A stretch of DNA of 18,070 nt from Promethearchaeota archaeon (GCA_016839745.1 JAEOTS010000183.1:1-18070), one strand, 5' to 3'. Positions 1,620 to 18,070 are shown, counted from the first letter of the stretch. A program made the numbers and translations. Notes: a model not told the origin generated them from the sequence alone.

Positions 1620-2435
1620 ATGAGTAATGGATTTAGGTTATTAAGAATTGAATACCTGTTTAGCGTACTAGTACCCTGTTTACTCAGTATTTATTTAAAT
1701 AATTACGAGGTCATTGCTCACATATGGATATTAGCTGGATTTGCCTTTTATGCTATTACTGGGAATACTCTGAACGATGTTATAGATATGAAAGATCCAG
1801 ACGAAAAAGAAACGCTCAAAAGAGTCCAAGGTTATAGTCGTAAAGAAATTTTAACTATTTCGTTAGCAAGTTTCTTAATAGGGACCGTTTGTTTTATGAA
1901 TAGCATTGTAATATATCCAATTTTAGGTATTTATTTGGCAATCATTGTTATTTTAGTAATTATGTACTGCCTCTTCAAATCGCTTGTTATTATTAACCAC
2001 ATCGTTTTAGGAATCTCGCATATAGTATTACCTTGGTTGATGATAAAAATCAATGCTGGCGACCTAGCACTGTATTTTTTTCCCAATTTGAGCCTGTCTG
2101 AATTACTAATATTACTCTCTATAGCTTCAGTTGGGTATACTGGACAAATGTTACACGAGTTAATCGATGGAGATTCGTTGTCAAAATTATCTCCTAAAGC
2201 GTCTCAATTAGTGATATGGATTGCGTCTTTAATATCGCTCATAATTACAATATTTTCTTTAATAATTACCCAAAATTTCATATTTTTGCCTATAATTTTC
2301 TTTCCTTTTGGAATATTGTATATTTTTAGGAAACCCCGAATAGATTTATTAGATCGGACAGCGTTAAAAGACGTAGGAATTATCTTAGGAAACTTAATAC
2401 TAGTTTACATTATTGTTTTAATCATAGCACCTTAA
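1620..2435 (+). CDS. UbiA-superfamily intramembrane prenyltransferase
   Basis: About 8-9 TM segments; first Asp-rich motif GNTLNDVIDMKDPD (NDxxD); degenerate second motif QMLHELIDGD. ATG 1620 is preferred over GTG 1608 because a TATA-like TTATAATA at 1591-1598 fits a near-leaderless start. Confidence 0.75.
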   Translation: MSNGFRLLRIEYLFSVLVPCLLSIYLNNYEVIAHIWILAGFAFYAITGNTLNDVIDMKDPDEKETLKRVQGYSRKEILTISLASFLIGTVCFMNSIVIYPILGIYLAIIVILVIMYCLFKSLVIINHIVLGISHIVLPWLMIKINAGDLALYFFPNLSLSELLILLSIASVGYTGQMLHELIDGDSLSKLSPKASQLVIWIASLISLIITIFSLIITQNFIFLPIIFFPFGILYIFRKPRIDLLDRTALKDVGIILGNLILVYIIVLIIAP

Positions 2436-2536
2436 AGAATTAAGTTGGATCCAATGACTGAAAAAATATCTAAAAGAATATTTGCAAAAGAATTTAAAAT
2501 TGAAAAAAATGAGGTGATTGTAAAATATATATTCAT

Positions 2537-2806
2537 ATGTCGATTCATTACCCTAAGCCTGAAAAGCGACAGCTGTTAATTGAGTCCATGCATCGATTTG
2601 GCAAAGCTATGGAAGGTAAAAAGGGCTTAATTATGGCACATACTACAAAAGACGAAGATTCAAACCGCTTAATTGGTTTAGCAATATGGGACTCGAAAGA
2701 AAATTGGTTAACTGCAAGACCAGCCATGATCGAGGCTGTTAAGGACGATCCCTTTGAAGAATGGGAATTAAGACCTCCTGAAGTCTATCATTTAACTAAG
2801 ACGTAA
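2537..2806 (+). CDS. Small dimeric alpha+beta barrel protein, antibiotic biosynthesis monooxygenase (ABM)-like
   Basis: About 90 aa with ABM-like pattern SIHYPKPEK...GLI...D...LIGLAIWDSKENW...PPEVYHL. The start is uncertain (see findings). Confidence 0.7.
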   Translation: MSIHYPKPEKRQLLIESMHRFGKAMEGKKGLIMAHTTKDEDSNRLIGLAIWDSKENWLTARPAMIEAVKDDPFEEWELRPPEVYHLTKT

Positions 2807-3001: not shown

Positions 3002-4132
3002 ATGGCAAAGAAACCCGTAACTAAAAATAATCAGATTAAAAAAGATCAGAAGGAAACAAAAGCAACTCCTCCTAAAGTAACAACTGTTAAACCAACAACT
3101 CAAAAGCCTATCCCTAAAAAACCAGCGCCACAAAAACCTAAAGTAAAAGTACTAGACAATCTTTCAATTCTGAAAAGTTCTCCTTATATAAAGCAGAAAA
3201 ACGACTCCAAAACAACTCAGAAACATTTATCACTAAAAGAGTTATTTGAAAAAAGTTTACTTTCCCAGAAAGAAGATAAATTAGAAATCGTATTAACGGG
3301 GCAATACGAGCAAGCTCTCGACTTAATGTTTGAGGCAGATGCTTCCAACTTATATCCAATCTTGGTAGGCCCTCCAGGAATTGGTAAAACAACATTATGT
3401 AGATATTATGCACAGTCACGGGCAGAAATTACGGGAAATGACTCATTTGAATGGATTACTTTTGACGAATCCACGAAACCAGCTCACCTGATTGGATCTT
3501 TTAACCCTGCAACCACAATTCAGAAGGGATTCTCGTTCGAAGCGTTTAATCCCGGGCCATTAATCAAAGCAATGTTAAACGGTGGCTTATTTTTAGCGAA
3601 CGAAGTGAATCGAGCTACTGAATACACGCAAAACTCGCTATTGGAACCATTAGAAGAAAAAACGCTATCAGTCCCGCATATAGGACGTGTAAAAGCATCG
3701 TCTGGGTTTTTTTTTATCGGTGCGATGAACCCTTCTGAATTAGTAGGAACTCACCGACTCGGCGAAGCGTTGAAAGATCGGTTTAATGTCTGGATTGAAC
3801 TCGACTATCCAGATAAGAAAACTGAAATGAAGATAATCGAGCATAACAATCCTTATTATAAAGTAGAAGAAAGTATCTTAGAAAAAATATATCTGATCAT
3901 CAATAGAACGCGCACCCATCATCAAATACAAACACCTGCGAGTTTACGCAGTGGAATCGCTTTAGCTCGATTGACAGGTGTCGCACAAAAAAGAAATAAA
4001 GCAGAGGAACCAAATAAAATACTTCGAAATCTTGCGAGTAATGTACTATTTGGAGCAATACAAACTAAACCTGGTGTTAAATCTAAAGATGTTATTAGCA
4101 ATATTATTTCTCAGGTATTAGGATCTGCGTAA
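3002..4132 (+). CDS. MoxR-family AAA+ ATPase (AAA_5-type) with Lys/Pro-rich N-terminal tail
   Basis: Walker A GPPGIGKT (3368-3391), helix-2-insert region HLIGSF...FNPGPL, Walker B-like LFLANEVNR, sensor I GAMNP, Arg finger ALKDRF, lid/sensor II PASLRSGIAL. Confidence 0.92.
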   Translation: MAKKPVTKNNQIKKDQKETKATPPKVTTVKPTTQKPIPKKPAPQKPKVKVLDNLSILKSSPYIKQKNDSKTTQKHLSLKELFEKSLLSQKEDKLEIVLTGQYEQALDLMFEADASNLYPILVGPPGIGKTTLCRYYAQSRAEITGNDSFEWITFDESTKPAHLIGSFNPATTIQKGFSFEAFNPGPLIKAMLNGGLFLANEVNRATEYTQNSLLEPLEEKTLSVPHIGRVKASSGFFFIGAMNPSELVGTHRLGEALKDRFNVWIELDYPDKKTEMKIIEHNNPYYKVEESILEKIYLIINRTRTHHQIQTPASLRSGIALARLTGVAQKRNKAEEPNKILRNLASNVLFGAIQTKPGVKSKDVISNIISQVLGSA

Positions 4133-4168
4133 TTTAGAAAGTATAATTAATATTAGGAATTGATTTGG

Positions 4169-6742
4169 ATGATAATTTTCCCCCAAAGCCCAGTTTGGTT
4201 TTCACTTAAATTTATAACTGCTCTACGAAACCATGAAAAATGTATGTATAAGCCGTCGATTCGTCAAGCAATCGCTATTTGTAAATTAATTCTAGCGAGG
4301 TTTCTAAATAAGGGCACATGTGAAGTCAACGACTTTATTGAAATTGCAGTTGTTACAAGTCCTCTTGAAAACCAAGCTTTAGCTCGTAAAATTGCCACAG
4401 AACTACTAACTTATAATGATCCCTCAAAAAATCGTATATCTTCTGATACGGTAAAGTCTGATATGTTTGGGAGTAAGACAGCACAGGACTTACTTGATGA
4501 TATAGGATTAGATCTGAGCGAATTAGACGAGGTTTTCGACGATTTTGAATTATTAGACAATTTTTTTAAAGAATTAGAAGATCTCGATTTAGACCAGTTA
4601 ATGGACGAGAGTCTAAACGATTTTTTTGATCGGTTTAGTGAAGAGTTGGAAGAAGATCCATATAAGACAGCTTTAGATGTCATTGACAATAATGCTATTG
4701 CTAACTTCAATAAATTCAAAGATTTAGAAGCGATGCTCGATTACGCAAGAGAATTATTAAAAAATAAAATGAACCATTTAGAGCCCAAGGATATAGATGC
4801 AGCTGAAAAATTGGATTTGTTAGAGGATATAATATCGAAATCTGATTCGTTAAAAGAGAAGATGATGTCTCAACTCGCAAAGGACAAAAACTTGGACAAA
4901 TTTAAAGAAAGCCTATCTAAAGCTTTAAGTGATAATTCCTTTGATGGTTTGAACATTGCTGAATTTGCCTTGAAATCTAATAAATTAAACCAGCAAGGTC
5001 AAAACATTGTAAAAAATCTTTTAAAACAAAATCTTTCTAAATCTAACAAAAATCTTAACGATATTTTTAACATATCAAAAGTCTTGGGATCAAATCCTAA
5101 TATAGCGAAGAAGAAAATGGATAATATCTTGAATAGCAGTTTGAAGCTCCCCTTTAAAGACGCATACAATAATGCAAAGAACTTTGATCAATTTTTTGGA
5201 GATAGTTTGAGCGAACAATACCTAGATGAGATTAACGAAAATTTTGATAACTTTAGTAAAGGAAAAAACTCAAGTGACATTAAAAAGGAACTAATCAACA
5301 ACCCAATAAAGACGCCAGCGTGGCGAAAATTAATGTCAAATATCATCGATAAAGATGTTCAATCAATGAACGAAGATTACACTGATAAGCAAATGATAGA
5401 CGCCCAGATGAAGAATTATATTGATGAATTAGTCGATTCTAAGAAGAATTGTAGTGATCTCTCTTGTCAATCGCAACTCAATAATAAAATTTCTGAATTA
5501 GTTGATAAAGCGGTCGGAAGTGCGGCGAGTAAAGAGTCGTTAAAAAATATGGTTAAGGATTTTAACAAGATGGGTTTTTCTCCAGACATTACTTCGATTA
5601 AGGACGCAGGAAAAAGGCTAGGCATGACAGAGACCGAAATTCTTAACCTTATCGAAAAAAGCTATAAAGTGTTTAAACAGTTAGTCAAGGAGAATCAATC
5701 GAAATACGAGACTTATAAAGATTATCTCGAGCAGATGGGATTAACACCCCAGCAGATAGACGAGATAGTTAAGTTAGCCCTAGGAGGAGCTCCCAAAAAA
5801 CCGCCTAATTTAGAAGTTTTGAGCGCTTTAAGCGAGAAAAATTTAGCTCAAGTATTAAAATCTGCGGAACAAATGGGAGACGATGCTCTTGATATGGCAT
5901 TTTCCTCTCTGGGTGCTGGGAGTGGTTTGGATCTATTGGAGCAATGGTTTTATTCGAGACATAATGTCTCAGCCAAAATCAAGAAAAGGTTGAAGGAGAT
6001 CATTAAGCAAATTATGATTGATTTAGGTATTAATGCAGCAAATTCTTTAATTGGTACTGCTAAATCTGGACCTCTTGTAGAGAATGTTGTGATCCCTTAC
6101 ACTTTAGGAGACGATTTTGAATTAATTGATCTAGAAGAGACGATAAGTAATTTATTGGAGGGCGGGAAAACGGTAGAAACGATTACTAACGACGATTTTT
6201 TAGTATCAAAAACTACGGATGGTCTTCGGTGCTTGGTTCTTGAATTGGATATTAGCGGAAGTATGAAAGGAAACAAATTAGCTCAAATGGCATTATGCAC
6301 AACTATGTTAGTATACGCTTTTAAACCAGAAGAACTCGCACTCACTTTTTTTGAATCTAACACGCATAAGTTAAAGAACCTTGACGAAGATGTTGAATTA
6401 GAAAAAGTTGTAGACGAATTACTCGATATTACCGCAAGGGGAGGCACGTGCATAAACCACGCACTTAAATGGGCAAACCTTCAGTTTGAAAAAAAAGCTC
6501 GTTCGAAATACAAACTAAACGTACTTTTCACTGATGCAGATGTTTTTGACTTCAACAATAGTTTAAGGGAGTTAAAAATTATGAAGGAAAAGGACATTAG
6601 ATTCGTTATGGTGGTCCCAAAATTCGGATGTTCTCCGGTAATGGCAAAAAAAATGGTAAAAGAAGCCAATGGAGTTCTTTTAACCTTAAATCAGTGGAGA
6701 GACTTTCCTAAGCTAATATCTGACATCATTACCAATCAATAA
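4169..6742 (+). CDS. Large von Willebrand factor A (VWA/MIDAS) domain protein, partner of the MoxR ATPase
   Basis: C-terminal MIDAS LELDISGSM (DxSxS from 6248), ARGGTCI (Thr) and LFTDA (Asp); pre-VWA motif IDLEETI; long helical middle region. ATG 4169 is preferred over TTG 4160 (AGGA at 4155-4158). Confidence 0.9.
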   Translation: MIIFPQSPVWFSLKFITALRNHEKCMYKPSIRQAIAICKLILARFLNKGTCEVNDFIEIAVVTSPLENQALARKIATELLTYNDPSKNRISSDTVKSDMFGSKTAQDLLDDIGLDLSELDEVFDDFELLDNFFKELEDLDLDQLMDESLNDFFDRFSEELEEDPYKTALDVIDNNAIANFNKFKDLEAMLDYARELLKNKMNHLEPKDIDAAEKLDLLEDIISKSDSLKEKMMSQLAKDKNLDKFKESLSKALSDNSFDGLNIAEFALKSNKLNQQGQNIVKNLLKQNLSKSNKNLNDIFNISKVLGSNPNIAKKKMDNILNSSLKLPFKDAYNNAKNFDQFFGDSLSEQYLDEINENFDNFSKGKNSSDIKKELINNPIKTPAWRKLMSNIIDKDVQSMNEDYTDKQMIDAQMKNYIDELVDSKKNCSDLSCQSQLNNKISELVDKAVGSAASKESLKNMVKDFNKMGFSPDITSIKDAGKRLGMTETEILNLIEKSYKVFKQLVKENQSKYETYKDYLEQMGLTPQQIDEIVKLALGGAPKKPPNLEVLSALSEKNLAQVLKSAEQMGDDALDMAFSSLGAGSGLDLLEQWFYSRHNVSAKIKKRLKEIIKQIMIDLGINAANSLIGTAKSGPLVENVVIPYTLGDDFELIDLEETISNLLEGGKTVETITNDDFLVSKTTDGLRCLVLELDISGSMKGNKLAQMALCTTMLVYAFKPEELALTFFESNTHKLKNLDEDVELEKVVDELLDITARGGTCINHALKWANLQFEKKARSKYKLNVLFTDADVFDFNNSLRELKIMKEKDIRFVMVVPKFGCSPVMAKKMVKEANGVLLTLNQWRDFPKLISDIITNQ

Positions 6743-6766
6743 ATTAATTACGCTTATCACATAAAG

Positions 6767-9118
6767 GTGAGCAAAGTAGATCTTAAAAATTTTGTTCAAA
6801 ATGGGGATTTATTTAAGAGGAACGTAATAGGAGCTAGATTCAATCGAGGAAAGAGTATTCCAAACAAAAACATAATTAATTTCAATGTCGTAAAGAGCCC
6901 CAAAATTAAAGTTTTAGCTAACATCCAAGGGTCTGGTAACTCAAAATACGTAGTAAACATCTTTCAAGACGATCAACGCGTAAATATCGTTCACGACTGC
7001 CCTGATTTTAAAAAAAATACTAAGTTCTGTAAACATATAGTAAAAGTTTTACTATTGCTTGAACCTGATGTGTGCAAAAAAGTATGTCAGGATATAAGAA
7101 CGATAAATTTCTCCTCGAATTTTACTCTAGTCCAGCGAAGTAAAACTGAAAATTTCATAATTAAAGCAGAGGAGTTAATTAAAGAATCCAAATATTATGA
7201 AGCAATAAATTTTTTAGATCAAGCCCACAGAGAATCTAATAACATTGATTACATTAAAAAGATCGCCGATATTTCTCTTAAATACAAGTTATACGACCAA
7301 TTCATAAAATATGCGGTAAAATTTGGGGATATAAGAGATTTTATCACCGATTATCCTAATTTTATAAGCTTAACGTTTAAAGGCATAAGAGAATACGAGT
7401 TACACAGAAAAGTCGATACAATCCTCAACTTACAGAGTCTTTTACTCAATTTCCCTAAGGATCTCGTCATTGAGACTATTAAAAAGATGGATGTAACTGC
7501 CGTAGAAAATCCAATATTTAGATATCTATTCCTTCATAAGTTTGCATCTGGAGTATATCTAGAGGATTTTTTTAAAGACCTCCCCATAAGTTCAAAGTTA
7601 GATTTAAAAGAACAAATCGCAGAAATAACTTTAGAAAGCGTTAACGAAGCAATTTTGAACATGGAATCAGAAGATAACATGGATAGTTATTTAGCAATTG
7701 CAAGAAATTGCAATTTCAAAAATAACGGCGCAAATTATTCTCAGATCGGTGTCTACAAGGAAAAGTTGAAAGATCTATACTTAGAGGGGCTTAAGCAAAA
7801 ACATGCGTTTCTTCGGTCTTTAGTAATAGCGAACACACAATCCGATAAACTCAAACAATTGAAATTTAATTATAGATATAACTACCCAACGCTAATTTGG
7901 GCATCTACTTCCCGGTCAGAAATCCCGTTGTATTATTACATTTTAGAAAAGTGTGGTATCGAAAAACACCACTTAGAATATCTTGAACAAAGCTATTTTG
8001 TCGAAAATTATCCCGTATTTAGCAAGATTTTCGATGGAAATAATCCCGTTAGAAATCTAGTAATGAAATTCTGGGGAAGTGATAATCCAACAATTAAAAA
8101 CACGGCATATACTAACAGAGTTGTAGATTTAGATTTTAAAGTAAATCTGAAGGAACTTGAAGCCTTTACTTTAATTGAGTGGGATTTAGCCCAAAAACCC
8201 ATGTTAGGAAGTCACATATGTCAATTCTCTGATGGATTTTTGATACCTGATAACAATCACCCTTTAAGTCACGAAATCAAACCGTTTGATTTAATTTTAT
8301 GTAAAACAACACCAATCGCAATTAAAGCGGGCAATATTAAAATTATAAGACCACTAAGAAGAATCAACATAAAAACAGCAATAGAACTCGTATGGGAAGG
8401 AATTGATTTCGTCTCAACTTATATCCCTTTTGAGATTATAACCGAATTAAAAGAGTACAAAATTGACGAGTTAGAAGCTTACGATAAAATCGATGAGCGG
8501 TTTAAAACTAGTTTTTTACCGAAAAAAGAAAGCGTTCGACAATTTTTTAGCGATTTCATTCAACGGAAAATTTTAAAAGAACTAAATAAAACTTACTTAA
8601 AGATAATACAGAAACCAAATTATAAAAGTAAGGTGTTGAGAATAATAGGATTCGAGCGTCATTCAAAAATTTTTACAAGTTCATCTTGTCTAAACGGGTT
8701 TAAAAGCGATTCTTTAAAAAGACAATCCTTACAGGAATTAAAGTTGGATTTTAAAAAATTCGTATCACTAAGACTAAGCCAATTAATTAAAATCGATGAC
8801 TTGGGGTCAATTGACATAAAAGCGCTGAAAGAATTCCCAACCTTTAAAAAATGGACTGTCAAAGTAATTTACATGTTGAAACAACAACTTTTAAACTGTA
8901 AAATCTACAAAGTTAACGATACATCGTACAATATTCACGAGCTTTCTAACAATTACTATGGAAAGATGTTACTAAACCACACTGAAAAAGTCTTAAATTC
9001 TCAGATACTGTCAAGAGCACCGGGTAAGTTTATTGTTACCAATAAATGTTTCGAGGAATTGTTAGAAAACTTTAAGCTGCTAAAACTTGATCCGCCAGAA
9101 GTAGTCAAAAGCAAATAG
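6767..9118 (+). CDS. SWIM zinc-finger domain protein with TPR-like/helical extension
   Basis: IQGSGNSKYVVNI...HDCPDF.....FCKHIVKVLL (6992-7036) is a SWIM pattern with His as first ligand, followed by a TPR-like helix pair KAEELIKESKYYEAINFLDQA. Lies 24 nt downstream of the VWA gene. Confidence 0.8.
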   Translation: MSKVDLKNFVQNGDLFKRNVIGARFNRGKSIPNKNIINFNVVKSPKIKVLANIQGSGNSKYVVNIFQDDQRVNIVHDCPDFKKNTKFCKHIVKVLLLLEPDVCKKVCQDIRTINFSSNFTLVQRSKTENFIIKAEELIKESKYYEAINFLDQAHRESNNIDYIKKIADISLKYKLYDQFIKYAVKFGDIRDFITDYPNFISLTFKGIREYELHRKVDTILNLQSLLLNFPKDLVIETIKKMDVTAVENPIFRYLFLHKFASGVYLEDFFKDLPISSKLDLKEQIAEITLESVNEAILNMESEDNMDSYLAIARNCNFKNNGANYSQIGVYKEKLKDLYLEGLKQKHAFLRSLVIANTQSDKLKQLKFNYRYNYPTLIWASTSRSEIPLYYYILEKCGIEKHHLEYLEQSYFVENYPVFSKIFDGNNPVRNLVMKFWGSDNPTIKNTAYTNRVVDLDFKVNLKELEAFTLIEWDLAQKPMLGSHICQFSDGFLIPDNNHPLSHEIKPFDLILCKTTPIAIKAGNIKIIRPLRRINIKTAIELVWEGIDFVSTYIPFEIITELKEYKIDELEAYDKIDERFKTSFLPKKESVRQFFSDFIQRKILKELNKTYLKIIQKPNYKSKVLRIIGFERHSKIFTSSSCLNGFKSDSLKRQSLQELKLDFKKFVSLRLSQLIKIDDLGSIDIKALKEFPTFKKWTVKVIYMLKQQLLNCKIYKVNDTSYNIHELSNNYYGKMLLNHTEKVLNSQILSRAPGKFIVTNKCFEELLENFKLLKLDPPEVVKSK

Positions 9119-9123
9119 CTCTT

Positions 9124-9885
9124 TTAGAAATAAATTTTCAACCAATTAATGGTTTCTCTAATAAACTCCTGTAAGTGTTCTTCTTCAAAATCGTGAGTTG
9201 CTCCTTGAACTTCAATAAATTTATGGTTGTCATCTTGGGGCATCAAACTAAAAGCTTTCTTATTTAATTCAAAAGGAACTTGTTCGTCCGCAGTGCCTTG
9301 GACTATAAGAGTTGGATCAATACATTTCTTCAAAGCTGGTCTAATTCGAAAATTAGCAACATCCATTACAAAACTCATATCAATAATAATAGGATCGTAA
9401 TCTCCGGACGATGGAATTTCTACAGGTCCCTTATCTATATCCTTAAACCAATCAACTTGGTCTGATGTTGAGTGAAGTAATAAAGGGGGAGCCCACAAGA
9501 CATAAGTAATAATTCCCGGTAGATTTGCTTTCATTGTAGTAAGACCGCCAAAAGAGAGCCCCAATACAGCAATTTTTGAATATCCTTGAGTTGTAACCCA
9601 ATTATATACATTTTCTAGATCGTTGGCCTGTTTAGTTAAATTTATCGGTTCCCTTTTATTTTCTCCAGAACCAGAAAAATCAAAGGTTAACGCATCGTAA
9701 CCTTCTTTATTTAATGCCTTTGCAGTTTCAGGAAAGCGACCCCACTCGGATTTATCGCCTGTGAATCCATGACACATAATTAGAATAGGTGGTTTTTCTA
9801 AAGAGTCTTCTTCTTTGGCAAAATAGAATACACCATGGAGATCGCTCCGTTCAGCATTAGGAATTAAAACTTTTTTCTCTGTCAT
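9124..9885 (-). CDS. Alpha/beta-fold serine hydrolase (esterase/peptidase S9/S33-like)
   Basis: HGFTG oxyanion motif, FDFSGSGE, nucleophile elbow GLSFG, acid GTADEQV, His GATHDF. ATG at 9885 (MTEKK) is preferred over TTG at 9909. Confidence 0.9.
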   Translation of the reverse strand: MTEKKVLIPNAERSDLHGVFYFAKEEDSLEKPPILIMCHGFTGDKSEWGRFPETAKALNKEGYDALTFDFSGSGENKREPINLTKQANDLENVYNWVTTQGYSKIAVLGLSFGGLTTMKANLPGIITYVLWAPPLLLHSTSDQVDWFKDIDKGPVEIPSSGDYDPIIIDMSFVMDVANFRIRPALKKCIDPTLIVQGTADEQVPFELNKKAFSLMPQDDNHKFIEVQGATHDFEEEHLQEFIRETINWLKIYF

Positions 9886-9959
9886 AAGACAATTTAAAGG
9901 TAAAAACAATTTAAAATTTTTTTAAATATACTTATTTTCATTTTAATCTTACAGTATTT
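9886..9959. promoter_or_regulatory. Compact divergent promoter region between two hydrolase genes
   Basis: 74-nt gap with TTTAAATA (9921-9928, + strand) and TTTTAAAT on the - strand around 9909-9916, each roughly 25-30 nt from its ATG. No SD visible, consistent with leaderless mRNAs. Confidence 0.4.
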
Positions 9960-12966: not shown

Positions 12967-13266
12967 AAATCAAAATCACATTTTAATTTTCCGGAAGAAT
13001 AAGAGAAAATAATAGTATTATTCCCAAAACTTAACGAATAAAATAGGTAATACCTATTAAACTATACTAAAAAACATTAAGAGCATTCCTTCCTCAGTCA
13101 CATATCTTCTATTCCAATAATTTTATATGGAGATACTGGGTGATTTATTTAGAGAAAAATATATTAAAATTTTATTGATCAAACCTACTATAAGATTGTA
13201 ATTACATAATTCAATAGAGTTATCTTATTTTTAAATTAAAAAAATGAATCGTAATTAATGATAAGA

Positions 13267-14394
13267 ATGGCTGAAACTTACGAGAATTTTATGATCTTTG
13301 GATTAGAAAGTACCGGTGAAAAAGTAAAATTAGACATATCAGAAGACGAATTTCGCGCCAATAACGGTCAAAACGTACTAGATTCTCACCAAGTATTAGT
13401 GATTGTTAAGGAAGATTTAAGGAGAATTTACATTTGGAAAGGCGTAAATTCACATGTTAGAAAAAAGTTTATAGCGTCTCGCATTGCTGCGGAATTACAA
13501 AACGATTTAGTTGTTAACGGACATTTTCATCGATGTAAGATTATATCCGTAGATCAAGGAGACGAACCTCTCGAATTTATGAGAGCTTTTGGGTTGAAAG
13601 CAACCGAAGCTCCGGATTTCTTAGAAAGGGATTCTAAAGAATTTAAAGAATTACATGTAACCTCTCTTAAGGAAATTGCAGAAATTAGTGATAAAAAAGT
13701 TCACGGATGGAAAGGACCACCTCCAACGCTTAATGGCAAGTTTGAATCTCCTGTAAGTGTTAAAAAAGAGGATAAGGAAATTTCACCTAAATCTAAACAA
13801 CCAACAAAACCTCCTAAGATTCACAATAAACATTTGATTGAAAAAATTGTGAATAATAAAGTTCCCGCCAATTTTAAAAGGCAAAATTTAATTCTAGGCA
13901 ATTTTCAAATATACGGAGCAGCAGTCAAAAAAGCAAAAGTTTTCGGAGAAGAAGTAGAAGAAACTGAATGGGAACCCGTGAACTCAATACCTGAAGGACC
14001 AATTGAACTTACCAATCGAACAATAAGACTTTATACCAATAGCAATTCAGGGACAATTGAAGGAATAGAAATACTCCAGAAACTAAAAATTCCCATAATC
14101 GAAGAAAAAGTAAGCGAAGAGAAGGAAGAAATAGATTACAATTCTTGGACAGTAAGCAAATTAAAACTCCATTGCAAAGAGAACAATATTCACGTTCCAT
14201 CAAACTATCGGAAAGCACAAATTATTAACCTCATTCTGAATGGACCTCCTCGAGAAAGCGCTGAACAATGGATTGATTATAACAAGTGGACGGTCAAACA
14301 ACTAAAAGAATATTGTAAAGAAAACAAAATTAAAGTACACTCAACCTATCGAAAAGCAGACTTCTTAAAACTCGTAAAAGAACATAAAAAATAA
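13267..14394 (+). CDS. Asgard-type gelsolin-domain protein with a central unknown domain and two C-terminal SAP/HeH/Rho-N-like repeats
   Basis: N-terminal gelsolin pattern LDSHQVLVIV....RIYIWKG.NS.VRKKFIASRIAAEL...IISVDQGDEP.EF..AF; C-terminal repeats DYN.WTV..LK..CKEN.I.V.S.YRKA....L. The alternative start is ATG 13258. Confidence 0.8.
   Translation: MAETYENFMIFGLESTGEKVKLDISEDEFRANNGQNVLDSHQVLVIVKEDLRRIYIWKGVNSHVRKKFIASRIAAELQNDLVVNGHFHRCKIISVDQGDEPLEFMRAFGLKATEAPDFLERDSKEFKELHVTSLKEIAEISDKKVHGWKGPPPTLNGKFESPVSVKKEDKEISPKSKQPTKPPKIHNKHLIEKIVNNKVPANFKRQNLILGNFQIYGAAVKKAKVFGEEVEETEWEPVNSIPEGPIELTNRTIRLYTNSNSGTIEGIEILQKLKIPIIEEKVSEEKEEIDYNSWTVSKLKLHCKENNIHVPSNYRKAQIINLILNGPPRESAEQWIDYNKWTVKQLKEYCKENKIKVHSTYRKADFLKLVKEHKK
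14131..14376 (+). repeat. Intragenic tandem duplication of a ~35-aa helix-extension-helix module (copies start at 14131 and 14272, period 141 nt)
   Basis: IDYNSWTVSKLKLHCKENNIHVPSNYRKAQIINLI vs IDYNKWTVKQLKEYCKENKIKVHSTYRKADFLKLV; similarity is also visible at DNA level (TGGAC-GT, AAAGA-AACAA-ATT, CTATCG-AAAGCA). Confidence 0.9.
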
Positions 14395-14427: not shown

Positions 14428-17388
14428 TTATATTGGAACACGGGAAAAATAAGAAACACTCTCATCTAATTGATCTAAATACATCTTTCTTTTTCCAGGT
14501 AGAACTTTTTCTGTTAGAATCTTTGCTTTATCATAGCAAGTAGTTGCTTCCTCAAGCATTCCTAGACTTTTATAACATTTCGAAAGTTTTAAGAATGTGT
14601 GAAATGCAAACCATCCAATTGGATTCATCTCTAATGCTTGATAAAATTTTTCTATAGCTGCCTCGTACTTCCCTGAAAACATCAGAATTTCACCGTAAGT
14701 ATCGAAGAGATTCGCGTCACGCGGTTCTATTTCAATTGCTTTTTTAATTGTCTCCAAAGCTTCATCGAATTTTCCTAACTCACTAAGATATATAGATAAG
14801 TTGTTTAACATAGCTACCATTTCCGGGTAAATTTTAATACTTTCTCTAAGAAGTCTAACTCCTTCTGCTATTTTTCCCAACACATAATAAGAGAACGATT
14901 TCATCTGGCGAATTTCTTTATCATTCTGAGGAAATTTCTCAAAAAATTCATCGTAGAGCGCTAATACTTCGTCTTGCTTATCGCTATAAGTTAAATATAT
15001 GTGAGTTTTTGTACTATGAATATCAAAGTGCTCCGGACTTAATTCAATTGCTTTATCGATTGTTTTTATTGCCTCGTCAAAGCCATCTGTTTCGTTTAAT
15101 ATATAACTTTCCAGTTGATAATACCTGGACAACTTCTTCTCGCTTTGTTCCATTGCTTTTGCTTTCTGAAATTCTTCTCTAAATAATTCTTTATTAGCTT
15201 TACTTTCATCAAAATTGTAAACTATGTTGAATCCGTGAACTAATCCAGTAATAATATGAGAAAGTGGATGATTTGGATAGTGGAATCTAACCTTGCTGAC
15301 AATATCTAAAGCTTTTTCAAATTTCCCCCTTGCTACATATGAAAATGATAAAATTAAATACGCAGCAGTGTCAACTCGAGGATTGCCTTTAAGCAAATTG
15401 AACTCAACGGTCTGTTTAATCCAATCTTTTGCTTGCTTATACTTATGGGTTACCGTGTATAATATCGCTTTCATTATTGAGAGTTCTGAATCGTCAGGAT
15501 TCGAATCTATAAGTGAATTTATCAATTTTAAAGGTTCGTCATAGATTTTTGTACAGCAATCCGTCATACCCACTAGAAATTTAGTGCGATTTAGCGCAAA
15601 ATTATCTGGATAGTCTTCAATTATTTCATCGATGAGTTCTTGGGCTTTATCGTGATCGCAATTAATTAGAACTTGCGCTTTTTGGGAGATTAACAAGATA
15701 TTAAATGACATGTTCAAACCTAAATCAATAACATCCAACGCATCCTTGAATCTTCCCATCAAGAAATAAGTTATAGATTGAAAAAGATATCCTACATATT
15801 CGTTGGGATATTTCTCTATGATTTCATTAGTTAATTCTAGCGATTCTTCTAATTCTCCGTTATATGTTAAAGTTAAATCCTTAAGGATCATCAGTTCAAC
15901 ATCGTTTAAATTCTTAAGATTATCCTTAAGTAGATCGTTCACTTTCGATAAGTTTCCTTTCGCTAACTTTTTCTCAATCATAGCTAAAAATTCAGCATTC
16001 TTAGAAAAATACGCTTTCTTAAACTCATCCATGCGGATAAAATCTATTTTCGAGAAATAAATTATGTCCAATGTATCAAAGATCCTATTATGCAAAAAGT
16101 AATACGATTCGTTGTCTACAGGTTTGTTTATCGTACTCGCCGTCTCCGATGTTCCAAAACTCTGAATTACCTCGAATACATTTTGAAACGCTATACCCTT
16201 TATTTTATCCGTATGGTTGATTAAACTCTTCTCCGTTTCAAACGTATAGGCTAAATGTTCAATATATTCGATTAAAAATTTCCGGAGTGCCGACTTCAAA
16301 TTTTCATTGAATAAATTACTACACAGATCTTCTAAAGCGTCGTCCAGTAACTGGTTGATATCAGGGGCATCGTATTTATCTCCATTTTTTTTCTGGAACT
16401 TGCTCAAGTATGTGAATTTTCTAATGTAGTCCTCGATAATTACGCTTAACATCTTGTCTAATCTCTCTTCAGCCTGAATATAATACGTAATTTTATCATC
16501 TACTTTTAGTTTAAAGAATTTAATAGCATATAACTTATCTTCCACGATTTTTTCTATAAAAAATTTTAATGTCGTCAGTTTTATATCATACTCTAACGCA
16601 AAATCATTTGCTGTTATGTAATTAGGGTAGTTGTCAGGATGGTTTATTGATAAGAATAGCAAAATTTTATCAAAATCTTCCTCGTCCGATAAGGTAGCCT
16701 CTACCTTAGTATAATCTAACCTTAAAACCATATTTAAGAAACGATATCGAATTTCGTTGTCGTCTATTTCGTATTCGTCAAAGAATTTGCCTACCTTATC
16801 TGTAATAACTTCAACCCTTTTAATTTCTTCGTCTAATATCGATTGGCGATCTAAATCGTACTTCTTTAACATTTTGAAGTATTCAGTTTCACCGTCCCTC
16901 GTAATACTATACTCGCGATTATTTTTTTCAATAAAATCTTTGTCTAATAAAATATTCAAGTTTTTTGATAATGAAGATTGATTGATTGAAAGAGGGGGCT
17001 CAAGAAAATCTGACCACTTACAATAGGCATTGTTATAAAGCATCCAGAGAATCCAGTGATCGTATTCCCTAGTTTTTGTAATAACCTCAGGAGGATAATT
17101 CAAAGAAGTCTCTAATGTATCTTTAACCTGTAACTCAGTGTATTGTCTACGACCTTCAGAAGTTATCCTATACTCTCCCTTCTTTTCCTTCTCAATAAGA
17201 CCATTATTTTTTAAAATTGTCAGATATTTTGACAAAGTTGCAGGGCTTATATTAACAGGTTTAGACTTGAATTCTGACCAAGTGCAAGATTCGTTGTTAT
17301 AGAGCATCCAGAGTATAATATATTCAAAATCTTTGTTGATTTTCATAGGTGTAATTATCCCTTCAGGTGGGTATTTTGTGATACTCAT
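14428..17388 (-). CDS. Multi winged-helix (wHTH) + tetratricopeptide repeat (TPR) protein, putative transcriptional regulator
   Basis: Two clear N-terminal wHTH repeats (ISPATLSKYLTILKNNGLIEK...YRITSEG; INQSSLSKNLNILLDKDFIEK...YSITRDG) and many C-terminal TPRs (e.g. MLNNLSIYLSELGKFDEALETIKKAIEIEP; LFDTYGEILMFSGKYEAAIEKFYQALEMNP). Confidence 0.88.
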   Translation of the reverse strand: MSITKYPPEGIITPMKINKDFEYIILWMLYNNESCTWSEFKSKPVNISPATLSKYLTILKNNGLIEKEKKGEYRITSEGRRQYTELQVKDTLETSLNYPPEVITKTREYDHWILWMLYNNAYCKWSDFLEPPLSINQSSLSKNLNILLDKDFIEKNNREYSITRDGETEYFKMLKKYDLDRQSILDEEIKRVEVITDKVGKFFDEYEIDDNEIRYRFLNMVLRLDYTKVEATLSDEEDFDKILLFLSINHPDNYPNYITANDFALEYDIKLTTLKFFIEKIVEDKLYAIKFFKLKVDDKITYYIQAEERLDKMLSVIIEDYIRKFTYLSKFQKKNGDKYDAPDINQLLDDALEDLCSNLFNENLKSALRKFLIEYIEHLAYTFETEKSLINHTDKIKGIAFQNVFEVIQSFGTSETASTINKPVDNESYYFLHNRIFDTLDIIYFSKIDFIRMDEFKKAYFSKNAEFLAMIEKKLAKGNLSKVNDLLKDNLKNLNDVELMILKDLTLTYNGELEESLELTNEIIEKYPNEYVGYLFQSITYFLMGRFKDALDVIDLGLNMSFNILLISQKAQVLINCDHDKAQELIDEIIEDYPDNFALNRTKFLVGMTDCCTKIYDEPLKLINSLIDSNPDDSELSIMKAILYTVTHKYKQAKDWIKQTVEFNLLKGNPRVDTAAYLILSFSYVARGKFEKALDIVSKVRFHYPNHPLSHIITGLVHGFNIVYNFDESKANKELFREEFQKAKAMEQSEKKLSRYYQLESYILNETDGFDEAIKTIDKAIELSPEHFDIHSTKTHIYLTYSDKQDEVLALYDEFFEKFPQNDKEIRQMKSFSYYVLGKIAEGVRLLRESIKIYPEMVAMLNNLSIYLSELGKFDEALETIKKAIEIEPRDANLFDTYGEILMFSGKYEAAIEKFYQALEMNPIGWFAFHTFLKLSKCYKSLGMLEEATTCYDKAKILTEKVLPGKRKMYLDQLDESVSYFSRVPI
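16867..17373 (-). repeat. Intragenic duplication of the wHTH domain (aa ~6-86 and ~98-174)
   Basis: Shared YPPE.I, ILWMLYNN..C.WS.F, LSK.L.IL, IEK, EY.IT..G...Y. Confidence 0.9.
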
Positions 17389-17408
17389 ATATAAAGTGTG
17401 TATGAGAA

Positions 17409-17430
17409 ACTATTTAAGTATTTTGTTCGG
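17409..17430 (-). promoter_or_regulatory. Putative BRE/TATA promoter of the wHTH-TPR gene (leaderless)
   Basis: The minus strand reads CCGAACAAAATACTTAAATAGT; the TTAAATA is centred about 26 nt upstream of ATG 17388. Confidence 0.45.
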
Positions 17431-17490
17431 GCGAATGTTCGAAGTTCGTTCGAACTTCATAAAGTTAAACTATATAAAAACTGGCGAACA
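17424..17490. promoter_or_regulatory. Operator-like cluster: perfect inverted repeat GAAGTTCG-TT-CGAACTTC (17441-17458) plus further GTTCG/CGAAC copies; TATA box TATATAAA at 17471-17478
   Basis: GTTCG at 17425, 17437, 17444 and 17448; CGAAC at 17451 and 17485, all in an otherwise very AT-rich divergent intergenic region. Confidence 0.65.
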
Positions 17491-17554
17491 CTATAAAATT
17501 AGCAACAAAAAAGAAAAATAAAAAAAATATAAAAAAAGGAAGTGATGAGAAAAG

Positions 17555-17833
17555 ATGGCCCAAGCAGAGCAAAAACAAGCCAGTATTAATAGTCAAATCC
17601 ATTTCCAGATCCAAGCACCTGAGGTTGCTACACCTCAGGTGTTGGTCAAAGGGATCGAAGCTCCCGGGATGGAGAGAGATGAATCACCAATAATTAGCAA
17701 AAAACTCAGGAAACTGTTTAATAAAGTTAAATTAAACGCGAAAATTACCGAGGAAGTCAAATGCATCAAATATGTGAAGGCGAACATTGACACAAAAGTC
17801 TTTACGCACGTAAATAACCTACCCTATTATTAA
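17555..17833 (+). CDS. Hypothetical small protein (92 aa)
   Basis: Preceded by TATATAAA (17471) and SD-like GGAAGTGA (17538-17545), followed by a long T-tract. No recognisable domain or signal peptide. Confidence 0.75.
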   Translation: MAQAEQKQASINSQIHFQIQAPEVATPQVLVKGIEAPGMERDESPIISKKLRKLFNKVKLNAKITEEVKCIKYVKANIDTKVFTHVNNLPYY

Positions 17834-17838
17834 TTGAA

Positions 17839-17854
17839 TTTTTTTTACTTTTTT
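17839..17854 (+). terminator. Oligo-T terminator after the 92-aa ORF
   Basis: A T-run, then AC, then a second T-run, beginning a few nt after the stop codon. Confidence 0.5.
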
Positions 17855-17937
17855 AAAAAATTTTTTCAAAAAATAAAAAATAACATAACCAGGAAAAAAA
17901 AATAGAAAAAAAGCATAAACAAGGAGGTATGAAGCTG

Positions 17938-18012
17938 ATGAGAAGAAACGAGATAAAAGAAAGCAAACTTGCGAGAAGTATGAAAGTAGAGAATTTATTT
18001 TTGAGGATATAA
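17938..18012 (+). CDS. Putative 24-aa micropeptide MRRNEIKESKLARSMKVENLFLRI (not in the ORF track)
   Basis: Perfect SD AAGGAGGT at 17921-17928, 9 nt before ATG 17938 (in-frame ATG also at 17929); double stop TAATAA; T7 tract at 18024-18030. Confidence 0.55.
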   Translation: MRRNEIKESKLARSMKVENLFLRI

Positions 18013-18070
18013 TAAAACAAAAATTTTTTTAATTAACCACCAACAAGAAAGAACAACAAAAAAACAATAA

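Follow-up and report, generated by a model that had tools for sequence, protein, structure and literature searches.

The window analysed here is the entire 18,070-nt contig C172 of a Promethearchaeota archaeon (GCA_016839745.1, JAEOTS010000183.1; assembly of 3.53 Mb, 89% complete). Near its 3' end a 986-residue protein combining N-terminal winged helix-turn-helix (wHTH) domains with a C-terminal array of tetratricopeptide repeats (TPRs) is encoded head-to-head with open reading frames (ORFs) for proteins of 92 and 24 residues, an arrangement that an earlier note had described from the sequence and that was recovered by ORF analysis, Pfam matches and an AlphaFold2 (AF2) model. On the reading adopted here, Loki-type Asgard archaea have a lineage-specific regulatory cassette of which the module is one copy and in which the large protein would be a transcriptional regulator that controls its own gene together with the small genes and senses the small products through its TPRs. 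Taken as a whole, autoregulation and sensing included, this explanation was given about an even chance of being correct.

The domain architecture of the regulator was established with Pfam and AF2. Matches to wHTH families fell in two stretches and exceeded the curated cut-offs (HTH_45, 44.2 bits with a cut-off of 25.5; MarR, 33.3 and 24.6; HTH_34, 33.0 and 27), as did matches to many TPR families (TPR_2, 87.4 bits; TPR_19, 71.9; TPR_1, 70.2). The AF2 model (m113250598ac8), built on 42 homologues with a predicted local distance difference test score (pLDDT) of 83.5, shows a helix-helix-helix-wing topology twice and a degenerate third copy without a Pfam match, joined to the second winged helix by a connecting helix. 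A long helical hairpin follows, which in the model is a possible dimerisation element, and a disordered linker of approximately 40 residues (386–427) precedes the TPRs. No NTPase family was among the Pfam and NCBIfam matches listed for the regulator, and in the model the space between the DNA-binding and TPR parts is occupied by winged helix and helical hairpin. A Foldseek search with the whole 986-residue model, a blunt test, returned APC/C subunits, OGT, TTC7B, SPINDLY and IFIT5 at ranks 1–50 with no RRNPP receptor (the bacterial peptide receptors compared below) among them; TTC7B was the top match for the TPR part. A sequence search of the PDB with the N-terminal module gave no match among solved structures. 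Three winged helices combined with TPRs constitute a transcription-factor architecture without earlier description.

Homologues were obtained from metagenome-assembled genomes of Promethearchaeota/Lokiarchaeota type, where they are annotated just as wHTH domain protein or TPR protein, and 111 loci of the regulator family were collected. The N-terminal 440 residues match 68 of the 101 genomes of the order, 66 of them among the 81 genomes of one family, and a single genome can have as many as 10 copies; when genomes were sampled across the phylum, the regulator was present in 31/40 of that family vs 1/160 elsewhere. The family falls into size classes of ∼430 residues (no TPR), ∼630 (∼5 TPRs), ∼830 and ∼990. 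The short TPR array of the 630-residue paralogues corresponds to the last ∼200 residues of the window protein, blastp placing it at residues 765–963. Paralogues are ∼50% identical in the N-terminal module and variable in the C-terminal part. Two paralogues are encoded elsewhere in the window genome, on contigs C192 (846 residues) and C170 (824 residues). Paralogue identity is 29% in the TPRs vs 47–49% in the N-terminal module, and mean distances are 0.61 for the TPR part vs 0.42 for the DNA-binding part, so that by sequence comparison the presumed sensor part diverges faster than the DNA-binding part. On three contigs (G044:C39, G068:C3 and G082:C13) two cassettes of different size classes lie 5–22 kb apart, which suggests local duplication.

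The gene divergent from the regulator encodes a small protein of a family that was followed with a hidden Markov model (HMM) scanned against the ORFs of the collected loci. The HMM matched at 42 loci, in every case divergent from the regulator and 100–230 nt away. The gene, encoding ∼80 residues in the family at large, accompanies 23/28 regulators of at least 900 residues and 19/34 of 800–900 residues, with 0/37 in the ∼630-residue class and 0/8 in the ∼430-residue class, or 42/62 long-TPR loci vs 0/45 short-form loci, counts that come from related loci and represent a descriptive pattern and not a statistical test. Mapped onto a tree built from the N-terminal module, the small gene occupies entire clades, interrupted by scattered losses. 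Among 1.84 billion representative proteins a profile search revealed 83 family members, stand-alone proteins of 51–108 residues; the sole exception was a 2,525-residue protein with a local repeat match. The family is kept at the protein level across paralogues of only ∼20–50% identity, and the GTGAT-type Shine-Dalgarno (SD) sequence of the gene is also kept at paralogous loci. Members share an M-A/V-Q start, a variable acidic part with an isoelectric point (pI) of 4.9, and a basic C-terminal stretch of ∼45 residues with a pI of 10.1; the values for the window protein are 4.7 for the N-terminal part and 9.9 for the last 45 residues. Many end in RNYGVY or similar, and 45/64 have Tyr or Phe as the terminal residue. 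In the AF2 model of the 92-residue protein the N-terminal part is disordered and residues 44–87 form a helical hairpin with a pLDDT of ∼90. The Pfam, NCBIfam and PADLOC searches gave no match for the small proteins, the ESM Atlas gave unnamed clusters alone at 0.90 with low recognition, and VIA-align found generic helical hairpins only, with Z no higher than 4.0. The 92-residue product is a bipartite small protein and not a typical propeptide.

Beyond the ∼90-residue gene, orthologous loci contain two or three micro-ORFs of 21–29 codons, each with a GAGGT-type SD and an oligo-T tract. The 24-residue ORF of the window, designated type A, has positional orthologues of 21–29 codons at eight related loci, with a matching T-tract, a matching C-terminal motif and a GAGGT-type SD at the position corresponding to its own. 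In the closest orthologue, L225, whose regulator is 92% identical, the N-terminal part of the micro-ORF differs and the VENLFLR tail is retained; there a second micro-ORF, type B (core IIIxNAG), begins 95 nt past the type A stop. A type B micro-ORF of ∼23 residues is expected just past the contig end, since the contig stops at 18070 immediately before the orthologous position. In type B, substitutions by codon position number 65/44/102, and the excess at the third position therefore fits coding sequence. Many paralogue clades likewise have micro-ORFs behind the small gene, in a variant particular to each clade. The variants resemble one another in opening with basic residues, in having an Ile run, an Asn and a Gly-Tyr/Phe core, and in an aromatic terminus, with Tyr, Phe or Trp as the final residue in 20/27. 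At some loci lacking the ∼80-residue gene, those of 630-residue forms included, a micro-ORF is directly divergent from the regulator, at 150–200 bp in some paralogues.

The micro-ORFs were counted under a strict definition requiring an SD, a basic N-terminus, an III..N..G-Y/F core, an oligo-T tract and a length of 21–31 codons. The divergent strand had 37 and the opposite strand of these regions, serving as control, had 1, with micro-ORFs at 31/98 TPR-bearing loci vs 0/8 TPR-less loci. An HMM of 27 micro-ORFs searched against all six frames of the genome matched only the cassette of the C192 paralogue (E 7.6e-5), other segments having E > 0.1. These SD-led micro-ORFs are, on comparative sequence data, a third conserved component of the cassette. 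Both small-gene families are missed or left unnamed by annotation pipelines. The earlier note had given each small ORF its own SD and T-tract, as is seen in the sequence, and had found neither to have an evident signal peptide. The latter agrees with a Kyte-Doolittle scan that detected no hydrophobic export segment in any small product: the highest 15-residue mean of the small proteins (n = 64) had a median of 0.71 and a maximum of 1.61, and the micro-proteins are basic with an Ile run of just 3–4 residues.

Several observations bear on the micro-ORF region. The motif ACCAGGAA at 17888–17895 (+), between the terminator of the 92-residue gene and the micro-ORF SD, recurs in the same place in L013, L014, L017, L018 and L226, and may serve as a promoter, a start site or a signal for processing. 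On the divergent strand upstream of the regulator, at four loci of the 990-residue class (L020, L022, L030 and L066), the place of the micro-ORFs is taken by mini-ORFs of ∼45 residues encoding zinc ribbons with two CxxC pairs, those of L030 and L066 ending in NFDF. L066 further contains, 179 nt upstream of the regulator, a 27-residue ORF joining the N-terminus of the ∼80-residue family (MVQVLEK) to a tail of micro-ORF type, which looks like a deletion fusing two genes. A leader-peptide or attenuator role for the Ile-rich micro-ORFs was considered unlikely because the downstream genes vary among loci.

The intergenic region was compared among eight orthologues with regulators 54–92% identical. 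Three blocks are conserved in an otherwise variable spacer: the core inverted repeat, taken as a candidate operator, and two TATA boxes. The palindrome-rich gap of the earlier note was confirmed; the central palindrome consists of 8-nt arms and a 2-nt spacer and is no perfect 18-mer. The half-site (GAAGTTC or its complement) is present in 62/107 upstream regions of the family vs 189/5000 random 250-nt genome windows, a 15-fold enrichment, and sits between the two divergent TATA boxes with a variant proper to each paralogue class; the 824-residue clade of C170 has GAACTT-N6-AAGTTC. Two exact half-sites within 25 nt occur at three places in the 3.53-Mb genome, two of which fall between the divergent genes of the C172 and C192 cassettes; the third, on C151, lies inside a hydrolase gene and was taken as chance. 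The regulator mRNA is probably leaderless, to judge from the sequence, since only ∼25 nt separate the TATA box from the ATG and an SD is lacking. The earlier note had asked whether divergent small ORFs and a common motif regularly accompany the homologues; they consistently do, and this test did not refute its proposal. Coordinates of the features are collected in Table 1.

Table 1. Features of the regulator/small-gene module in the window, with positions counted from the first nucleotide of contig C172.
Feature	Position	Strand	Basis and remarks
Regulator gene, 986 residues	14428..17388	-	ORF, Pfam, AF2 model; orthologues at 64–92% identity, ∼50%-identical paralogues
TPR solenoid, residues 434–960, ∼13 repeats	14509..16089	-	Pfam TPR families, AF2, Foldseek
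Long helical hairpin, residues 309–388	16225..16464	-	AF2 helices 309–333, 344–358, 362–388
Third, degenerate winged helix, residues 211–305	16474..16758	-	AF2 alone (helices 211–282, then beta hairpin 291–305)
Winged helix 2, residues 108–177	16858..17067	-	Second HTH_45 stretch; AF2
Winged helix 1, residues 20–89	17122..17331	-	HTH_45, MarR and HTH_34 matches; AF2 secondary structure
Gap between regulator and 92-residue gene, 166 nt	17389–17554	.	Sequence
TATA box of regulator promoter (CTATTTAAG on + strand)	17410..17418	-	Conserved block in eight orthologous intergenic regions
Extended GTTCG/CGAAC half-site cluster around core	17424..17490	.	Sequence, repeat D3; partly kept in eight-orthologue alignment
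Candidate operator core, inverted repeat GAAGTTCG-TT-CGAACTTC	17441..17458	.	Invariant in eight orthologues
TATA box of small-gene promoter, AACTATATAAAA	17468..17479	+	Kept in eight orthologues and across paralogue classes
SD region of 92-residue gene, GTGAT core	17538..17549	+	Sequence; SD 8 nt ahead of ATG
92-residue small protein	17555..17833	+	ORF, HMM, profile search, AF2; acidic disordered N-part, then basic helical hairpin, Tyr end
Oligo-T tracts T8 and T6, archaeal terminator type	17839..17855	+	Sequence; after stop of 92-residue gene; equivalents in orthologues
Strong SD of micro-ORF, AAGGAGGT	17921..17928	+	Sequence; 9 nt ahead of ATG
24-residue micro-ORF, type A	17938..18012	+	Positional orthologues; basic N-terminus, C-terminal VENLFLRI
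T7 tract after micro-ORF stop	18024..18030	+	Sequence

A mechanism can be proposed in which the regulator, probably as a dimer, binds the inverted repeat via its winged helices and controls its own gene and the array of small genes through the divergent promoters. Archaeal sites upstream of the TATA box more typically serve activation than occlusion. The candidate operator is upstream of both TATA boxes, and its position would therefore favour activation with positive feedback over occlusion. The TPR solenoid would be the sensor and the products of the neighbouring small genes its ligands, so that feedback would run in a closed loop like that of RRNPP pairs. Of the two kinds of product, the micro-proteins would bind the C-terminal unit of five TPRs common to all TPR-bearing paralogues, and the ∼80-residue protein the extra TPRs confined to the long forms. 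That the solenoid has two parts with a ligand class for each is suggested by the restriction of the ∼80-residue gene to long-TPR forms and the wider spread of micro-ORFs over TPR-bearing forms. The aromatic ends of the small proteins and micro-proteins likewise suggest, at the level of sequence, a common C-terminal recognition feature. Whole clades of the tree carry the small gene, and each regulator clade has its own type of micro-protein; the unit of regulator and small genes is kept in orthologues and has been duplicated many times, with clade-specific variants of operator and peptide. Such co-duplication with clade-specific peptide types is the pattern expected of cognate pairs.

Four observations weigh against sensing of the small products by the TPRs. 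In a Mantel-type test, small-protein distances correlate with those of the N-terminal module no less than with those of the TPRs (partial r 0.30 vs 0.29). The orthologue L016 has lost the ∼90-residue gene and the type A micro-ORF, yet retains the regulator, the operator and other micro-ORFs. The small products are hydrophilic and basic, properties compatible with binding to nucleic acid or to membrane surfaces. Finally, some TPR paralogues are divergent from other genes, encoding a HATPase_c protein, small GTPases, an AbrB-like protein of 58 residues or a protein with a signal peptide, and the divergent gene can therefore simply be a target. The main rival explanation, judged possible but rather unlikely, generalizes the last point: the regulator drives the small genes, whose products act elsewhere without feedback, and the TPRs sense another protein or a metabolite. 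The products could then be peptides of a cationic, surface-active or antimicrobial type, micro-proteins that bind ribosomes or nucleic acid, or the cargo of the neighbouring efflux pump. Targets of this kind would account for the same promoter architecture in paralogues with unrelated divergent genes and for a distance correlation that does not single out the TPRs, and the basic helical hairpin modelled for the 92-residue protein could bind nucleic acid. A gene for a major facilitator superfamily (MFS) efflux protein similar to DHA3/EntS/Mef, co-directional with the small genes and directly 3' of them in 7/25 extended cassettes, mostly of the 830-residue clades, fits a locus for production and export. 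In contrast, the repeated co-duplication of the regulator with its own type of small gene, the strict confinement of the ∼80-residue gene to long-TPR forms and, in this genome, the occurrence of the micro-ORF family only beside these regulators are easier to explain if products and regulator are interdependent.

Two further explanations concern the nature of the locus itself. The cassette could be a selfish or defence module, the regulator and small basic proteins forming a toxin-antitoxin-like, addiction or anti-virus unit, and this is considered highly improbable. It would account for the many copies (as many as 10 per genome) in variable surroundings, for the two cassettes side by side on one contig, as in G044:C39 and G068:C3, and for the genes past the micro-ORFs, which differ between orthologues. 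However, PADLOC matched the regulator only weakly, to generic wHTH models (best E 1.2e-6, WH_III-A), and did not match the small proteins, the fetched flanks showed neither integrase nor transposase nor repeat boundaries, and the 3' side, a SAP/HeH gene followed by an MFS gene, is syntenic among close orthologues (SAP/HeH neighbour in L225, L227 and a third contig). The distribution moreover follows one archaeal family and is not patchy. That the small ORFs are chance frames in an AT-rich spacer, with the regulator alone being real, is hardly conceivable, even though this AT-rich region abounds in short ORFs and gene callers skipped the micro-ORFs. The protein-level conservation of the 92-residue family across distant paralogues, the conserved SD, frame, length and terminator of the micro-ORFs, the third-position excess, the strand asymmetry of 37 to 1 and the finding that no Rfam family accounts for the region (a search of 17200–18070 gave nothing meaningful) refute chance frames as far as comparative evidence allows.

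The proposal of a cassette with sensing of its own products can be taken a step further, to true peptide-pheromone systems of Asgard archaea independent of RRNPP, an extension that is considered improbable. The micro-proteins or C-terminal tails would be released, in some cases by the DHA3-type MFS pump, re-imported by Opp-type transporters and bound by the cognate TPR solenoid, which would then activate the bidirectional promoter. The genome has six matches to Opp-type peptide-binding proteins and an M50 protease, which permit peptide import and processing and are evidence for neither. If the extension were true, several orthogonal receptor-peptide pairs per genome would amount to a multi-channel signalling code.

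The surroundings of the cassettes vary. In the window, the gene convergent with the regulator at 13258–14394 (+) encodes a 378-residue protein with a weak gelsolin-repeat match and two C-terminal SAP/HeH modules, and an unrelated three-gene cluster at 3002–9118 (+) encodes a MoxR-type AAA+ ATPase, an 860-residue VWA protein and a 783-residue protein without a Pfam match. The 824-residue clade (C170, L099, L103 and L110) is divergent from a conserved 245-residue HATPase_c protein (on C170 at 1844–2581 (-)) in place of small genes, and on C170 a small GTPase gene follows the regulator. In another clade, of 832 residues (L024 and L056), a 23-residue SD-led ORF is directly divergent and is followed by genes for Rab/Arf-like small GTPases. 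In a 638-residue subclade (L083, L090, L091, L102, L114 and L115) the divergent gene starts with a classic signal peptide, basic and then with a long hydrophobic stretch, so its product is predicted to be secreted or membrane-anchored. Convergent with the micro-ORF of C192, at 9114–9911 (+), is a gene for a 265-residue radical-SAM-type protein (CxxxCxxC). Ribosomally synthesized and post-translationally modified peptides were rejected as a general feature, as this gene is not kept at the sister loci L141 and L142 and no modifying enzyme recurs in neighbourhood clustering.

Among known organisms, Asgard archaea are the most closely related to eukaryotes, and their way of life involves obligate partnerships. 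To our knowledge, no ribosomal-peptide sensing circuit has been established in Archaea. In the literature neither a published description of the module nor such a circuit in Asgard archaea was found. Receptor-like regulators with cognate micro-proteins would give a testable handle on Asgard regulation or communication, and a module of this small size can be tested directly with synthetic peptides and short DNA probes. Even the conservative reading adds a new transcription-factor architecture, a defined candidate operator and two small-gene families.

The earlier note had likened the module to the bacterial HTH-TPR peptide regulators, and as regards layout the analogy holds. Like the RRNPP(A) systems of Bacillota, phages and plasmids, especially Rgg/SHP and ComR/ComS, the regulator is a cytosolic-type protein whose DNA-binding part is N-terminal and whose TPR array is C-terminal (PMC10075063, PMC12700828, PMC7564271). 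A small ORF lies within a few hundred bp, often divergent, several paralogous pairs occur per genome, a transporter follows at some loci, and the products have ∼21–50 and up to 100 residues. SHP-type propeptides have ∼24 residues and a basic N-terminus and are without a Sec signal (PMC7564271, PMC10075063). The published RRNPP signature, used as the yardstick, comprises a receptor of 250–500 residues (validated members 285–473), an adjacent ORF of 10–100 residues at -60 to 400 bp from the receptor gene, a propeptide with a Sec signal or a short hydrophobic peptide exported by PptAB, and a source in Bacillota or their mobile elements (PMC10075063). The receptors have an XRE/Cro-type HTH, or none, directly before a core of 5 (+4) TPRs (PMC12700828). 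The window has the TPR profile match (TPR_2, 87.4 bits) and the adjacent ORF (92 residues, 166 bp away and divergent, with counterparts at 42 related loci). It departs from the signature in a receptor of 986 residues, in Pfam matches to winged helices and none to an XRE-type HTH before the TPRs, in small products with neither Sec signal nor hydrophobic export segment, which might still be exported by a leaderless route, and in sources of Promethearchaeota/Lokiarchaeota type. Membership of RRNPP was ruled out by length, HTH type, taxon and propeptide character, and the kinship side of the analogy falls with it.

The differences extend beyond the signature. There is no detectable homology to RRNPP(A), three winged helices replace the XRE-type HTH in an archaeal host, and the family spans 630–1000 residues vs 285–473. 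Between the DNA-binding and TPR parts lie a helical hairpin and a disordered linker, and the canonical TPRs number from 5 to ∼13, with APC/C, OGT and TTC7B, scaffolds of eukaryote type, as nearest folds. The products are hydrophilic and basic and not hydrophobic, and an extra folded small protein of ∼80 residues is present. A convergent regulator-operator-peptide system, as the earlier note put it, is by analogy a reasonable but unproven description.

Other known systems share single traits. MalT/LAL proteins and AfsR-type SARP-NOD-TPR regulators (PMC10936776) are transcription factors with a TPR array as presumed sensor; they have an NTPase of NB-ARC/AAA type between the DNA-binding and TPR parts, of which the regulator shows none in its listed Pfam and NCBIfam matches or its AF2 model, ruling out a STAND/LAL identity, and they differ further in DNA-binding fold and in that cognate small genes are not described for those families. 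No defence-system model of PADLOC-DB describes the module. The C-terminus of EFR3 on the TTC7/FAM126 TPR scaffold (PDB 9bax, 5dse) offers one way in which a helical hairpin could sit on a TPR solenoid; a C-terminal helical segment of EFR3A is among the weak matches to the small-protein hairpin (Z 3.7, noise level), and this analogy is taken as a lead only, with no relationship claimed. The regulator does belong, by domains above curated Pfam thresholds, to the MarR/ArsR-like wHTH superfamily. Winged helices 1 and 2 score against the models of archaeal single-domain regulators and chromatin proteins (MarR/ArsR type, Lrs14, Sta1 and Sso10a-like), with which the regulator also shares a palindrome at its own promoter; unlike those proteins, it carries three winged helices in a single polypeptide, joined to a helical hairpin and an extended array of TPRs.

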